Assembly (NCBI RefSeq): GCF_054482525.1
Contig: NZ_JBTHVG010000007.1
Direction: 5' to 3' (one strand)
Origin: a plasmid
DNA: 64,000 nucleotides
Position 1 is the stretch's first letter, and every line of letters begins with the position of its first letter. A model generated the notes under the pieces. It saw only the letters and a program-made list of their open reading frames with translations. It was not told the DNA's origin and did not search any database. The position numbers and the translations under genes were made by a program. Shown one piece after another: positions 2,991 to 38,657 of the stretch.

Positions 2991-3120
2991 GATGCCTAAC
3001 GTTAAGTTCAGCGGCAGCTTTTAAGTTGCGGCTTTGTGGAATACTTTTGCGCAGCAAAACCACAAAGACGCGACTTAAAAGCTGTCCAAGGAGCGAAGCG
3101 ACTGGTGCTGCAACGCATTG

Positions 3121-3594
3121 TTAGCCTTTTTTCCAAATCTGGTATGTATAATTTATATTAGACATAAAAAACTGTTCAAAAACCAAATTGAAATTCTCAG
3201 GCATTATAGGGAATTTGATATCACCTTCGACTTCAACGTGAACAGTAGACAAATGAATTATATCTGCTTTTTCAATAAGGCTATTATAGATTTGACCCCC
3301 GCCAGAGACATATACATGATCTGTAACTTTTGATAGCTCTTTCAAAGCATTTTCTATTGAAGGAAAAACTAGGACGTTTTCATTTGAGCTTGAAATTCCG
3401 TTCTTTGACACTACTGCATATTTGCGATTTGGAAGAACACCCATAGAGTCAAATGTTTTTCTTCCGACAAGGAGCCATTGATTATATGTGAGCGCTTTAA
3501 AGAGTAGTTGCTCACCTTTTACTGACCACGGGATATCAGGACCACTACCGATTACGCCATTTTCTGACACTGCAGAAATCAATGATATTTTCAA
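3121..3594 (-). CDS. dfrA: Trimethoprim-resistant dihydrofolate reductase DfrA (dfrA1-like family; allele not determined, possibly dfrA27-like)
   Basis: 157 codons from a TTG start preceded by AAGGGAG; product [48 protein letters not shown]... typical of dfrA1-family; first cassette next to attI1. Confidence 0.85.
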
Positions 3595-3751
3595 TTTAAC
3601 TCCCTTAATGGCTAACTTTGTTTTAGGGCGACTGCCCTGCTGCGTAACATCGTTGCTGCTCCATAACATCAAACATCGACCCACGGCGTAACGCGCTTGC
3701 TGCTTGGATGCCCGAGGCATAGACTGTACAAAAAAACAGTCATAACAAGCC

Positions 3752-18157: not shown

Positions 18158-18779
18158 TGCATCGCCTGTAAATTTTTAACTTGTCCTATTTTTGTCATTA
18201 CCACGTATATACACATGTATAACAATTCAGATATCGTTACCAGGATATGCCGCATCAGCGGCATGGAAGGCGGCACTCTGTTGTTTCATATGATACAGGA
18301 GTAAAACCGCCGAAGCCCGGCGTAAGCCGGTACTGATTGATAGATTTCACCTTACCCATCCCCAGCCCTGCCAGACCATACCCGCTTTCAGCCATGAGAG
18401 AGCTTCTGTGCGCGGTCGGAGTGGTCCCGACGAGGGTTTACCCGAAGTCGGGGCGTATCTCCGCGTTAGCGGGCCGTGAGGGCCGCTTACGAGCGTGTAC
18501 TGAGAACTTCCAGCGAGAAGACTGACAGCGATGAAGATGTAGTTACAACATTCATAATTAAAAGCGACTCTGTTCCGGCCCTTTGGGCCGGGGCGGGGCC
18601 GCTTTTCAGTTATGAGGGAGGGGCTTTGTGGTTTCGGTTCTGCGCTGGACCGGGGTTTTTCTGGAGGTTGTTTTTGTGTGTTGTAACTAAAGTGACTCCG
18701 GTAGGGGCCCGCGGCTTGCGGTGGGAGGTGCATATCTGTCTGTCCACAGGACAGGCAGTGAATAGGTTTTCTTTTTAAA

Positions 18780-19095
18780 TGAATGTAATTAAGTAGTTTA
18801 AAGGAGATATAAACAGGTGTTTAAAAGATACATTGCACCCTGTAAGGCTGGCGCCTGGTGCTTTATGACATGAACGGTTGTAACCTTATGGGGAAGTCCA
18901 TTGCAGTTAAATGTGGATAAGCAAAATTCCCCGTCTGTGAGGCGTGTTTTGTATCAAAAACAGGGGGGGCCAGATGCACCAGAAGGTGGATGATGAGGTT
19001 GTTTTTTGTATGAGGTGCTGCTTTTTTGTTCGCTGGCAGGCTTCAGGCGTGCGAATGCCTCCGGTGCGGGCCGGATTATTCAGAAGAGGTCACTT
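18780..19095. other. RepFII origin region (oriR) downstream of repA1, approximate
   Basis: AT-rich stretch with a DnaA-box-like TTATCCACA (complement near 18912) immediately 3' of repA1. Confidence 0.35.
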
Positions 19096-19953
19096 TCAGG
19101 GGGAAGCTGTGGCCAGCCGGCTGTAATTACGGTTACGTGACAGAATCATGCGCTCTTTCACACGACGCTCCACTTCGCGTTTTACCGCCTCACGATTGGC
19201 AGTGAAGCGCCCTTCCGAGATTTCACGCGTCAGCTGCCGTTTCACCAGGGTGACGATATCCTGACGTTCCCTGTTCGCATCACGACGCGCACGGGCACGC
19301 TTTATTCCACGGGACTTAAGCTCTGTCTGGTAACTGCGGAAACGCTCACGCACAAAACGCCAGGCTTTCGCTATCAGTTCATCCATACCCAGGGTATCCA
19401 GCCCCTGCTTTTTGCGCTGTCTGTTTTCCCATTCAACACGACTGCGGCGCGCAGCAACCACTGCATCCTCAGACACATCAAGGGCGGCAAATAACGCCGG
19501 TGTGAACGTGATATCGGTCGGAATGTAGCACCCGATAAGCGGATCATATTCCGTCTGGTAGGTAATCAGTCCCAGCTCTGCAAGGAACGTCAAGGCTCGG
19601 GAGGCCCGGGTGATGGAGAGTTTTCCGGCAGCAGACTCCGTCGCCAGTCCGCACTCAATGGCCAGCGTAGTGATGGAGCACTGGACGCGGTTGGCCAGCG
19701 GGTCATAGTGAAAACACAGCCCCTGCAGCAGCGCATCAATAGCCCGGCGACGCAGTACCGGTGGCATGCGCCGACGCAGTCCCTTCGAACGGGCATGTGC
19801 CACATGAATGGCGAAATCAAAACGGGAGGTGAAGCCCACCGCCTTTTCCATCAGTTTTTCGCAGAACTTCAGCGTTCCGGCACCTTCACGGGGTGTGAAC
19901 ACCGGATTCGGATTTTTAACCTGTGAATAGTATTTTTGAAGGAGATCAGCCAT
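19096..19953 (-). CDS. repA1: IncFII replication initiator RepA1
   Basis: 285-aa product [56 protein letters not shown]...; RBS GGAGGGGGAC. Confidence 0.93.
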
Positions 19954-20428
19954 GTCCCCCTCCAACACTATTCCCCCTCCTACGGGCGGTAACTAGCTCG
20001 TCTGGGCCGACACGTAAAGTTTCGAACATATCTGGTCTGAACCAGATGGTTCCTCCATCAAAAGCGATGAGATGAAGATCATTATCAAGAGTTTTGAGGG
20101 CTCTCCAAACACGAGTGTATGAACCTCCACTACAAACTGAAAGCTCTTTAACAGATAAGTTAACTTTGTTCGTATCAGGGATGTAGTGTGCGCACATTAC
20201 TTGTACGAGGGAAACATAAAAACTAACCATCGACGCGCTGATTTTATTTTTACGTTTGCCATGCGCTATTGCAAGCAAACCTCTGATGAAGATCAGATGC
20301 TTGAAGGAGTCAAAATGAGCCCTTTTCTGGAGAAGGCTGCAAAACGGGTGAGGATACTTGCTGGAATCAATGTGAAGATCTGATTCAATCCCACCCGCTA
20401 TTACTGAATGTGTTTCATGATTAGCCAC
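19946..20428 (-). CDS. Extra ORF between tap and repA1 encoding a divergent homolog of the RepA1 N-terminal half (about 160 aa)
   Basis: GTG start overlaps the tap stop (GTGGCTAA) and TGA stop overlaps the repA1 ATG (ATGGCTGA); by-eye alignment to RepA1 residues ~30-165 (FC..L..KA..F...C.HY.P..N.V..S...L...CG...R...AL..L..LGLI...ARR); about 42% GC versus about 58% for repA1. Alternative in-frame GTG at 20440. Confidence 0.5.
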
Positions 20429-20495
20429 ACCATCCTGCACTTACAATGCACAGAAGGAGTGAGCACAGAAAGAAGTCTTGAACTTTTCCGGGCAT
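20421..20495 (-). CDS. repA6: RepA leader peptide Tap (repA6), 24 aa
   Basis: ATGCCCGGAAAAGTTCAAGAC... = [24 protein letters not shown], near-identical to the R100/R1 tap peptide as I recall it. Confidence 0.7.
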
Positions 20496-20544
20496 ATAAC
20501 TATACTCCCCGCATAGCTGAATTGTTGGCTATGCGGTTTTATGG

Positions 20545-20640: not shown

Positions 20641-20726
20641 CCACCTTACGGCGTGGCCAGCCACAAAATTCCTTAAACGATCAGCAATCTACCACTCACT
20701 CCTGAGATAAGCAAGAATGTGAATAT

Positions 20727-20984
20727 TTACGAAGTCGCTCTGCGTTTCAGCTCTGATTCAATCAGTTTTTCAAGCATCTGCGCCTGAGTAATACCTTCCT
20801 CATCCGCCAGTTCACTCAGCCTGTCTTTTAACCGGGCCTGAATAACCGCATGAAAAGCCTTATGAGTGTTGCTTCTGCGAGCCAGAGAAGCTCTTTGCCT
20901 CTCTCTGGCCGGAACAGGGTTACCTTTCCGGTATGTACGCTTGGTGCCTGATGAGGAAGTCACTGCATTTTCTGTCTGCGACAT
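20727..20984 (-). CDS. repA2: RepA2 / CopB transcriptional repressor of repA1
   Basis: 85-aa [28 protein letters not shown]...[20 protein letters not shown]. Confidence 0.85.
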
Positions 20985-21267: not shown

Positions 21268-21474
21268 TTACTTCCGTGCTTCGTAGGCCAGAGTTACCTG
21301 CACCACTGTATTTCCTCTGTGAATATTCAGCTCACATAACCGTTCCCTGAATATCAGTGAAAAACACAACACCGTGGCGCACACGGCGAGCAACCCGATA
21401 AGGGCATATTTCGTCATAAACTTTGACCTCTCAGCAAAGAAGAGGCTACAATCAGTAGTGTTAAGGTACTTCAT
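21268..21474 (-). CDS. srnB: Hok/SrnB-family type I toxin (start uncertain)
   Basis: C-terminal MTKYALIGLLAVCATVLCFSLIFRERLCELNIHRGNTVVQVTLAYEARK is Hok-family; structured GC-rich leader upstream. Confidence 0.6.
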   Translation of the reverse strand: MKYLNTTDCSLFFAERSKFMTKYALIGLLAVCATVLCFSLIFRERLCELNIHRGNTVVQVTLAYEARK

Positions 21475-22097
21475 GCAGACCTCACGAGTTAATGGATTAA
21501 CGAGTGGGGTCTTCGCATTTCTGGTACCTGCGTCTTGCCTGAACCAGAAAGGCTCAAACACCCGCCGCGATAATACCACATTCCCTGTTGCTGACTATTA
21601 CCCCCATTTGCCTGTTTTTGTTACAAAAACGCCGGGAGCGGGGGAAAACTTACTTTTTCCCGTTTCCGGGGGGGACAACTGAGCATTGCGAACGCGTCAG
21701 CTACGATGTTCCGGTGATTGCTGATCAGCCCCTGTTGTATTCATAAACTAATTAACATTCATTCTGTCTGGTGCATAAATCTGCCCGTGAACATCTGCAG
21801 ACAATACCGGCCATGAAAAGATAAATAATACCAGTGGAATATATTTCCTCATGTTATTCTCCATATCAGATAAATGGCACCTGTATTTCAGCCCCCCTGA
21901 ATATCGCAGCACACATTGAATAAGACCTTATTTTGTGAAATTAATCACAAAATATAAAATCGCGACTTAATACGGAAAAAACTCTGTGCTACTCAGAACT
22001 GGCCGGTCATACTGCCCGACCGGATATTAAAAAAAGCAAATCTCATAAACTCCTTTCAGCCTTCTGACTCCTGGAGTAATGAAGGCTGCTTTTTTCG

Positions 22098-22310
22098 TTA
22101 CACCCTTCCCCGGCAGCGCCGGTGGCAGTGTTCAGCCCTTTTCCGGGCAAACTGTTGCCAGTCTGTCCGGGGAGCTATGCAGGCAGCCCGTCGCCATGCT
22201 TCTGCCGCTTCCATCCAGCGTCCACTGACCTCCAGAATAACGGCCCGCCCGCCGGCACGCTGGTAACGCCAGACCTGACCGTTCCGTGAACTGTTTCTGA
22301 ATCCATTCAT
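22098..22310 (-). CDS. Conserved F-plasmid hypothetical protein downstream of finO
   Basis: 70-aa ORF in the finO-repA intergenic backbone; no recognised function. Confidence 0.3.
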   Translation of the reverse strand: MNGFRNSSRNGQVWRYQRAGGRAVILEVSGRWMEAAEAWRRAACIAPRTDWQQFARKRAEHCHRRCRGRV

Positions 22311-37284: not shown

Positions 37285-38657
37285 CGCGTGCTCCCTCCGA
37301 AGTGATAGTTGTTTTGGTAACGACTGAGCATGCGGGCGGAAAGCTGCTGACGCATGTAGCTCATCTGACGATCGACAACCAGCAGCGCATCCTGCTGTAC
37401 CTGCACCTGTGACTGAAACGCCGCAATCTGCCGGGTGGCATCATTCATGTTGTCGTTAATATGTCCGATAACCGCTTCGTCATAATTTCCCGTGGCCACC
37501 ATCGCCCGGGCCTGCTGTATCAGCTCCTGAATGTACTGCAGCAGGATGTCGTAACCGATATAGTCCGTCAGCTGGTAAATCATGCTGTTGGAAACTCCGA
37601 GCATCTGCGGGTCAACCAGGTATTTGAAGACGGGGATGGTGGTACTGGAAATAAAGCCTTTTTCCTTGTCATCCAGAGGCGTGTCACTGACCGCCTTGTT
37701 CTGAATGCTGGCCAGAAGTTTAGTAATCTGAGACTTCAGTGCATTATCCCGGCTGATAGTCACCGGTGTGTCTGCCACCACTTTCAGGCATTTATCAGAA
37801 TCGTTGCAGTGATAAATTTTTGCTGTGCCGCCTTCCATCATGGCCCGGATAATTGAGCGGTCAGTGGTTCTGGCTGACAGCGGTGTGATTTCGCCGTTGG
37901 GACCAAACACCAGTGAGCCGGTCAGCGTCATCACAAATTCTTTCAGCTCTTTGTTGCCGTCAAACATTCTGTTTTTGGAAAGCGCATTCCACATGATGTT
38001 GATGTTTTTGGTCACCCGCTCCTTATCCTTGTCGCTGGCTTTATCCCTGACACTGTCAGATTTCCCGCCAACGGTACATCCCTGCCGGGAAGCCGCCCAG
38101 TCAGCAAAAATATTGCTCTCACCGGCAATGTCCTGACAGACTTTCTGCTGGGACACCTGCGTCCGGGGGAAAAGCCCGCCGATAATCCCCTGTGCAGCCT
38201 GGCAGGAACTGAGGTTCATACTGTTAATGTCGCTTGCCATTTTCTGCACGAAGTCTTTTGCGGTTTTTATTTCCGGCACCGTTGTCTGCAGGGCAAGGTC
38301 AAAAAAGTAACCGGCAGCATTGCTCATAATCTGCTTAACAAAACGCTGCAACTGCTCACCATTAATAAAACTGAACGAGCCGAGATAGGCGTCGATGCCG
38401 CCACATCCAGCATTGATATCCGGCAGCGTCATGGAAATTAGCTGAACATTTTTGACCTGAGTACGGGCATACAGGGAGCCACCGTAAGCATAGCCGGCGG
38501 CCTGCCCCTGCCAGACGCCCGGCTGTGTGGTATTGGAAGCAAATCCCAGCTTATTAAAGAACTGATTCATGTCGCTGTTCACATCCGCTGACGCTGCAGG
38601 CGTCACCGTCAGTAAGGCGGCACAAAGAACCAGAAGAGGTTTAATGCGTGGCATCAT
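37281..38657 (-). CDS. traH: TraH pilus assembly protein
   Basis: 458-aa ORF with signal peptide MMPRIKPLLVLCAALLTVTPAASA. Confidence 0.9.
   Translation of the reverse strand: MMPRIKPLLVLCAALLTVTPAASADVNSDMNQFFNKLGFASNTTQPGVWQGQAAGYAYGGSLYARTQVKNVQLISMTLPDINAGCGGIDAYLGSFSFINGEQLQRFVKQIMSNAAGYFFDLALQTTVPEIKTAKDFVQKMASDINSMNLSSCQAAQGIIGGLFPRTQVSQQKVCQDIAGESNIFADWAASRQGCTVGGKSDSVRDKASDKDKERVTKNINIMWNALSKNRMFDGNKELKEFVMTLTGSLVFGPNGEITPLSARTTDRSIIRAMMEGGTAKIYHCNDSDKCLKVVADTPVTISRDNALKSQITKLLASIQNKAVSDTPLDDKEKGFISSTTIPVFKYLVDPQMLGVSNSMIYQLTDYIGYDILLQYIQELIQQARAMVATGNYDEAVIGHINDNMNDATRQIAAFQSQVQVQQDALLVVDRQMSYMRQQLSARMLSRYQNNYHFGGSTR

Follow-up and report, generated by a model that had tools for sequence, protein, structure and literature searches.

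A RepA1-related gene between tap and repA1 in RepFIC/IncFIC(FII) replicons, a putative relay cistron downstream of the CopA switch

In a 64,000-nucleotide (nt) stretch of plasmid DNA (NCBI RefSeq assembly GCF_054482525.1, contig NZ_JBTHVG010000007.1), referred to below at its full length as the window, we analysed a replicon that carries an additional gene between the leader-peptide gene tap and the initiator gene repA1. The CopA/tap/RepA circuit of IncFII (incompatibility group FII) plasmids is a textbook model of copy-number control, and by its CopA, tap, full-length RepA and oriR region with a DnaA box the replicon is assigned to the IncFII family. A preliminary description, made from the letters of the window, had pointed to an extra open reading frame (ORF) wedged between tap and repA1 and coupled to both; reading of the sequence confirmed its coordinates and both stop/start overlaps, and the gene is termed ORF160 here. 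Coordinates follow the numbering of the 64,000-nt stretch, in which the replicon is read on the minus strand, and the loci and proteins used for comparison carry L and P numbers. The features of the replicon are the following.

20727..20984 (-): copB/repA2, transcriptional repressor gene, 85 amino acids (aa), from the ORF list; homologs carry PF10723
20513..20601 (+): CopA antisense RNA gene, Rfam RF00042, 93.6 bits (gathering score 60), E = 2e-17
20421..20495 (-): tap leader peptide, 24 aa, from the ORF list; homologs carry PF08048
20421..20428 (-): junction 1, GTGGCTAA, ORF160 start codon over the tap stop, read from the sequence
19946..20428 (-): ORF160, GTG at 20428 to TGA at 19946, 160 codons; RefSeq WP_001273588.1, 'hypothetical protein'
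19961..20347 (-): winged-helix domain of ORF160, residues 28-156, confidently predicted
19924..20418 (-): block without homology to R100, 495 bp, replacing 20 bp of R100 (blastn)
19925..19973 (-): predicted RNA hairpin over the Shine-Dalgarno sequence and start codon of repA1, minimum free energy -19.9 kcal/mol
19956..19963 (-): Shine-Dalgarno-like GGAGGGGG of repA1
19946..19953 (-): junction 2, ATGGCTGA, repA1 ATG over the ORF160 TGA, read from the sequence
19096..19953 (-): repA1, full-length IncFII initiator, 285 aa, ATG start
18200..19095 (-): CIS/oriR region 3' of repA1, 95% identity to R100
18912..18920 (-): DnaA box TTATCCACA, read from the sequence

The start of ORF160 used by RefSeq and the NCBI annotation pipeline PGAP is the GTG overlapping the tap stop, which gives 160 aa; an alternative in-frame GTG at 20440 would give a product of 164 aa. 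In identical plasmids tap is named 'RepA leader peptide Tap' by PGAP, and the gene identical to copB/repA2 is annotated 'replication regulatory protein RepA' in other plasmids. A consensus scan placed a promoter-like site at 20478-20506 (+), just upstream of the CopA gene. RepA1 scored 580 bits with TIGR03474 (cutoff 446.9) and 618 bits with NF010313 (cutoff 478), and 18200..19095 is what we take to be oriR from established knowledge of R1 and R100. The lower GC content that had been reported for the ORF was borne out: ORF160 has 44.5% GC and a third-position GC content (GC3) of 40%, compared with 56.1% and 59% for repA1, and the contrast is repeated in four other loci.

Comparison of the replicon with R100 by blastn resolved it into three homologous and two non-homologous blocks. 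The upstream region and the copB N-terminus are 89% identical to R100; the C-terminal two thirds of copB/repA2 (20721-20922, -) have no megablast-level homology to it. The copA/tap block follows with 92% nucleotide identity, ending 2 nt past the tap stop, and from about codon 11 of repA1 through oriR (19923..18200) the identity is 95%, with 95% aa identity between the two RepA1 proteins. Between these homologous blocks lies the 495-bp block, made up of the ORF160 body, junction 2 and the first ~10 repA1 codons, and this is the unit that distinguishes the replicon from a canonical FII replicon. The RepFIIA replicon of R1/R100 shares copB, CopA, tap, full-length RepA1 and the downstream oriR region in collinear order, as well as coupling by stop/start overlap and a predicted hairpin over the ribosome-binding site of the initiator. 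In R100, however, the same 8-nt overlap directly joins tap and repA (L015 28746-28820 and 28813-29670), whereas here the tap stop overlaps the ORF160 GTG, direct tap-repA1 coupling is absent, and repA1, overlapping the stop of the 160-codon gene, begins 475 nt farther on. The repA1 start is also different, being ATG rather than GTG and preceded by a strong Shine-Dalgarno sequence, and the repA1 hairpin is predicted to be more stable than that at the R100 junction (-19.9 versus -9.6 kcal/mol).

By eye, the preliminary description had aligned the ORF product with the N-terminal part of RepA1, and formal pairwise alignment gave significant similarity. BLASTP of ORF160 against the RepA1 of its own plasmid yielded 33% identity over 98 aa (E = 1e-8), and profile-profile comparison of the ORF160 family with RepA1 by hhalign yielded a probability of 97.5% (E = 5e-12) for ORF160 residues 22-153 on RepA1 residues 23-172. 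Collinearity of the two proteins extends from the start codon as far as 'AARR', a motif near RepA1 residue 170, and the end of ORF160 is equivalent to RepA1 residue ~172-182. The TIGR03474 model (incFII_RepA) reached 17.3 bits on the ORF160 product against a cutoff of 446.9 (E = 2e-3), covering model positions 21-124 of 275 only, and precomputed PF02387 matches exist for several members of the ORF160 family; ORF160 is thus related to the N-terminal domain of the IncFII RepA initiator family (TIGR03474/PF02387), without a whole-protein match above cutoff. A search of the PDB sequences with the ORF160 family profile returned nothing meaningful.

The AlphaFold2 (AF2) model of ORF160 is a helical bundle followed by a winged helix-turn-helix with a beta-hairpin wing, with residues 103-115 as the predicted recognition helix. 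The motif S-x-T-R-x-x-R-A-L in this helix is common to ORF160 and RepA1, and two residues of the alignment, S103 and R106, never vary among ORF160, RepA1 and the short proteins of Pantoea type described below. The AF2 models of ORF160 and RepA1 agree in the kind and succession of their secondary-structure elements as far as RepA1 residue 182, and the RepA1 model (predicted local distance difference test score of 80) continues into long helices at 190-246 and 254-281 that are absent from ORF160. ORF160 is therefore predicted to be a complete RepA1 N-terminal domain that ends in the linker and lacks the C-terminal helical hairpin, and by its model it is a small protein of DNA-binding type.

Relatives of ORF160 with 65-84% identity were found in the protein database from Salmonella salamae, Citrobacter, Lelliottia, Klebsiella and metagenomes, and family members of 157-160 aa occur in five genera. 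Length and both overlaps persist in replicons whose ORF has diverged to 65-88% aa identity. Full-length relatives measure 156-163 aa, except for one variant shortened to 151 aa by a deletion, one of 176 aa whose C-terminus has been replaced and two in which 40 aa are inserted N-terminally. We retrieved seven diverged loci, and the comparison of ORF160 with repA1 in divergence and GC3 runs across L003-L010. In every retrieved locus of sufficient extent, a GTG or TTG on the tap stop opens the ORF, and its own stop overlaps the ATG of a 285-aa RepA; junction 1 keeps the geometry NTG..TAA/TGA in eight diverged loci, and junction 2 is a ATGACTGA or ATGA overlap in all eight. In L009 a change in the length of a G-run and in frame moved the ORF stop, yet the ATGA overlap with the repA1 ATG was retained. 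The 40-aa insertion, straight after the start codon (AEQNKSQAKWDGVPSDEQIRLPNLADSEQNVFAYSPAAKKK), is found in this locus (3001-3600) and in protein P0017. The N-terminus of ORF160 is evidently tolerant of change, to judge from these variants, while the coupling is kept.

Selection on the encoded protein is apparent at the codon level. Pairwise ratios of nonsynonymous to synonymous divergence (dN/dS) are 0.19-0.48 for ORF160 and 0.04-0.26 for the adjacent repA1, and variable sites of ORF160 fall on codon positions 1, 2 and 3 in the numbers 56, 48 and 91 (chi-square about 16, p ≈ 3e-4), the third-position excess starting at about codon 21. The 56 invariant columns of the family include the basic GKRKNK loop and SY.RVWR.L.TLD. 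GC3 is constant across L003-L010, at ~40% for ORF160 and ~59% for repA1. By these codon-level measures ORF160 is a real protein-coding gene under protein-level purifying selection, so that the label of a retained fragment, which the preliminary description had used, is too weak for a gene that has kept a whole protein domain. The RepA1 proteins encoded downstream of ORF160 belong to three clades with 60-78% identity among them, and the R100-like clade is found both with it (the window) and without it (R100); because of these combinations the ORF160 block behaves, in the loci compared, as a module. One 163-aa sequence, P0002, had been considered a frameshift variant and proved to result from an insertion at junction 2. 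In E. coli contig UGCU01000002.1 (L014 3480-6050) an IS21-family element with IstB- and transposase-like genes sits exactly at the ORF160/repA1 junction, where it yields P0002 (36 member sequences) and splits the replicon.

The ORF160 protein is encoded in 529 PLSDB records, 502 of them at an identity of at least 95% (tblastn), and ORF160 is present in 525 of 5,426 complete E. coli genomes (megablast), about one in ten; in these genomes and in about 500 of the PLSDB plasmids the block has 99-100% identity. Over the 621-bp junction region many plasmids match at 100% identity, among them pAPEC-O1-ColBM, pAPEC-1 (chi7122), pVir68 and pO83_CORR, and MOB-suite assigns plasmids that have the identical block to IncFIC. 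Because the same block is widespread and the identical plasmids are typed IncFIC, the locus is not a one-off junction; gene order and sequence mark it as the usual RepFIC/IncFIC(FII) arrangement, found in ColV/ColBM plasmids and in F itself, and no structural difference separates the window from other members. By the preliminary description's own standard this counts against its reading, since the arrangement is the standard layout of a described IncFII subgroup.

Plasmid F (NC_002483) is near-identical to the window through copB-copA-tap and the first ~270 nt of ORF160, where the inverted repeat of Tn1000 begins (L002 3850-4200). Canonical F thus has one end of Tn1000 within ORF160 and no repA1 beyond the transposon; E. 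coli NCM3722, a widely used laboratory strain, has a 67.5-kb F plasmid (NZ_CP011496.1) in which tap-ORF160-repA is intact (L017 1434-2833; ORF160 at 37940-38422 of the plasmid). The common account of F is corrected accordingly: Tn1000 is inserted in the small gene ORF160 and not in a full-length repA1. Saadi et al. in 1987 reportedly found the 'repA1 region' of F to be non-homologous to RepFIIA. What is new here is the reading of intact ORF160 as a selected, complete-domain RepA paralog; the layout itself has already been described. An extra 'repA of repFIC' was noted by Mellata et al. 2009 (PMC2626276), and pOXA-1207 plasmids have been described in a preprint as IncFIC-only. No functional study of ORF160 was found in the literature on RepFIC, IncFIC, repA1/repA4/ColV, mosaic replicons and truncated repA, a search that did not extend to the 1987 RepFIC paper.

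The two overlaps and the hairpin at junction 2 suggest how translation may pass from tap to repA1. None of 200 shuffled sequences was as stable as the 19925..19973 hairpin (z = -4.5), the 5' arm of which lies inside ORF160, and a consensus fold is possible in all eight loci, with a z of only -1.7 in L005. In comparison with the tap-repA leader control of R1, the downstream ribosome-binding site here lies in a predicted hairpin. The possibility that a promoter within the gene makes repA1 independent of CopA was considered and rejected, the consensus scan having found no sigma-70-like promoter inside ORF160. We infer that tap, ORF160 and repA1 form a three-cistron relay downstream of the CopA/CopT antisense switch. 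Ribosomes finishing tap would reinitiate at the ORF160 GTG, and those finishing ORF160 would melt the hairpin and reinitiate at the repA1 ATG. When CopA blocks tap, the weak ORF160 GTG would go unused and the repA1 site would stay closed. CopA would still gate RepA1 synthesis, with the ORF160 protein made in a fixed ratio with RepA1, and the logic of the circuit would be preserved while two proteins are yielded. That ORF160 is a translated, selected gene relaying translation to repA1 is, in our judgement, very probable.

A second family occupies the corresponding position in another type of replicon. The distant phmmer matches P0028, P0029 and P0031 led to a family whose members, 185-241 aa long, come from Pantoea, Erwinia and metagenomes and match positions 4-161 of the incFII_RepA model with E = 2e-31 (NCBIfam). 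In L011, L013 and L020, ORFs of 185-194 aa resembling the N-terminal part of FII RepA lie between a repB leader and a 339-aa IncL/M-type RepA (NF040977), with a PK-repBA pseudoknot preceding the leader (Rfam, 84-98 bits); the GTG of the short ORF lies on the leader stop and its own stop on the Rep ATG. These Pantoea/Erwinia ORFs are 43-61% identical to one another, are still open although synonymous divergence is saturated, and end at the same RepA1-relative place as ORF160, shortly after AARR. The IncL/M-type (repB-repA) replicons thus share the slot and both overlaps with the window, whereas their control RNA and pseudoknot and their initiator type are different, and their short ORF is far closer to FII RepA than is ORF160 (E = 2e-31 versus 2e-3), with ~35% identity to ORF160. 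By gene order and homology, the slot between leader and initiator is filled by a gene for an FII-RepA N-terminal domain in two replicon types. About 1 kb upstream of the IncL/M-type replicon of Pantoea ananatis contig JANFWD010000016.1 (L020 1-1468) we also observed a Thoeris-like defence pair, consisting of a ThsB TIR-domain gene and a SIR2/STALD gene.

The 5' end of ORF160 is homologous at the nucleotide level to that of repA1 (GAATCAGATCTTCAC with GAATCCGGTGTTCAC and GTGGCTAAT with ATGGCTGAT), and ORF160 is for this reason considered a repA1 paralog from its first codon. A plausible origin, as far as the sequences can tell, is that long ago a repA1-like gene was partly duplicated, or recombined, where tap meets repA1. 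Junctions 1 and 2 resemble each other in sequence, so that unequal recombination between them could create or delete the block, and such gain or loss would explain why an R100-like repA1 is found with the block here and without it in R100. Of the hybrid or duplicated junction that the preliminary description had proposed, the diverged paralog of the repA1 5' half and the plausibility of junction recombination or partial duplication therefore stand, whereas the junction is neither unusual nor recent in this plasmid. The donor replicon to which that description had looked did not emerge: a recent full-length RepA donor was rejected when a phmmer search of 1.84 billion representative proteins gave, besides the 160-aa family and fragments of it, no more than three short proteins of Pantoea/Erwinia type, with no close full-length RepA among them. 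A word-indexed protein search returned ORF160 relatives of 151-199 aa only, and tblastn of PLSDB returned nothing between 60% identity and the ~32% matches to ordinary RepA. The 3' tail of ORF160 (..NSVGGGHG before the stop) is suggestive of a relic of the tap 3' end (..VSAGWCG before the stop), a likeness that we do not count as evidence. A pairing by MAFFT of an 11-residue stretch of ORF160 with the tap 5' end was rejected as spurious, the stretch being homologous to RepA1.

On balance we consider it probable that ORF160 is a selected middle cistron in a CopA-controlled relay and encodes a RepA-derived DNA-binding modulator, the function of which we infer. The protein would bind DNA, possibly at RepA-type sites in oriR, and, having none of the functions of the C-terminal half of RepA1, would act as a modulator of initiation, be it a damper, a competitor or a trans-acting incompatibility factor. 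Shortened regulators made alongside the full-length protein are known from IS1 InsA, IS911 OrfA, Tn5 Inh and the short pi forms of R6K. In these cases the DNA-binding part alone is produced from the same transcript as the full-length protein, and the likeness of ORF160 to them is one of analogy; ORF160 differs in being a separate, strongly diverged paralogous gene, 27-34% identical to its partner. The more specific proposal that a RepA DNA-binding domain without the C-terminal half modulates initiation, either damping the origin of its own plasmid or competing in trans at those of other FII plasmids, is offered tentatively, as a possibility. A broader version is more doubtful, namely that in FII and in L/M replicons alike a small, diffusible version of the FII RepA DNA-binding domain has become fixed within the translational relay to the initiator. 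As RepA1 for its part works chiefly in cis, the domain-only protein would be a trans-acting occupant of RepA sites on oriR, for extra copy-number damping or as a weapon blocking competing FII plasmids.

Several observations weigh against a modulator under selection. A Pfam search with the ORF160 product gave no match even at E <= 10, and the first ~20 codons of ORF160 look unconstrained. ORF160 is the best-conserved DNA of the replicon (76-92%, versus 64-94% for repA1 and 54-71% for copB), and its synonymous divergence (dS, 0.18-0.66) is two- to five-fold below that of repA1 (0.23-2.3) in the same locus pairs. Low dS could possibly mean that the block has spread more recently than the adjacent repA1 alleles or that there is an extra constraint at the nucleotide level, and part of the conservation of ORF160 may come from such spread or constraint and not from protein function. 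No compensatory changes or covariation were found in the junction-2 hairpin across the eight loci. Every E. coli plasmid inspected also carries FIA or FIB. R100 initiates replication without any ORF160-like protein, and because its RepA1 and oriR are 95% identical to those of the window, ORF160 is not required for initiation by this type of RepA1; canonical F, with its Tn1000, tolerates disruption of the gene.

Much of this would fit a translated spacer, that is, a relic of recombination between two FII-type replicons that is kept open, with its overlaps, for the passage of ribosomes and whose polypeptide is inert. An origin by junction recombination is plausible, the spread of the block seems relatively recent from its low dS, the unconstrained 5' codons accept a 40-aa insertion, and R100 and F do without the intact gene. 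A spacer predicts, however, a dN/dS near 1 and no preference for third positions, whereas 0.19-0.48 and 56/48/91 were observed; the 56 invariant columns cluster in the predicted core, the GKRKNK loop and the recognition helix, two independent families are cut short at one and the same domain boundary, immediately behind AARR, and the Pantoea-type ORFs are open at saturated dS. We therefore regard an inert spacer as unlikely. The conservation of the segment, the highest in the replicon, its two- to five-fold lower dS and its AT-rich composition, consistent across all loci, would also suit a role at the RNA or DNA level with coding secondary, such as Rho termination before repA1 when CopA blocks tap, or a cis-acting site. 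The search for a Rho-utilisation signature in the replicon transcript gave a single weak window of C over G near the 5' end of ORF160 (20305-20384, -; 80 nt of the mRNA strand with C/G = 2.0), and no Rfam family matched the ORF160 segment at E <= 0.01. The codon-position pattern and the confident protein fold indicate coding selection instead, and such a role leaves the retention of a complete protein domain unexplained, which makes it improbable as the principal account.

A positive co-factor has also to be considered, in which ORF160 would be an accessory origin-binding subunit needed by RepA1 or helping it, as in a split two-component initiator. The fixed-ratio coupled synthesis expected from the overlaps, the recognition-helix motif common to both proteins and the occupation of the same slot in IncL/M-type replicons would agree with this, but R100 initiates with a 95% identical RepA1 and oriR in the absence of such a protein, and the association with three RepA1 clades, and with another Rep type in the second family, argues against a tight partner-specific interaction; we rate a co-factor as slightly less probable still than the RNA- or DNA-level role. 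That ORF160 is a chance ORF or an annotation artefact in non-coding DNA might be suggested by the lack of a Pfam match and the RefSeq name 'hypothetical protein'. Frame and length are kept at 65% identity and the homology to RepA1 is significant, which refutes this reading; dN/dS, codon positions, the predicted fold and the lengths of the relatives alike oppose it, so that its probability is negligible.

In E. coli, virulence and resistance genes are carried mainly by IncF plasmids. A three-cistron version of the copy-number circuit is found in a tenth of complete E. coli genomes, in ColV/ColBM virulence plasmids and in the ancestral F, with its middle gene annotated as 'hypothetical protein'. 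If ORF160 does modulate initiation or incompatibility, this would bear on the coexistence of IncFIC(FII) plasmids with other F plasmids, on the reading of overlapping FIC and FII calls in replicon typing, and on the design of curing or 'anti-plasmid' strategies against FII replication. Were the protein a weapon against competing plasmids, a protein-based incompatibility determinant would be present in ~10% of E. coli genomes as well as in the ancestral F plasmid. If it is inert, the locus is still a clear example of translational coupling constraining the outcome of replicon recombination.

The annotation of the RepFIC-type replicon differs among otherwise identical plasmids. In some records, such as the RefSeq record of pAPEC-O1-ColBM, PGAP places an 83-aa 'replication protein RepA' on the strand opposite copA/tap (L001 2811-3062, -), and a 15-aa 'hypothetical protein' takes the place of tap (L001 3053-3100, +). 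Just upstream of copB in the window, a sok antitoxin RNA (Rfam RF01794, 90 bits; 21405-21563, -) lies beside a Hok/Gef gene, and farther upstream there is a strong match to the antisense RNA family AS-pc02 (RF02876, 182 bits; 22016-22201, +).

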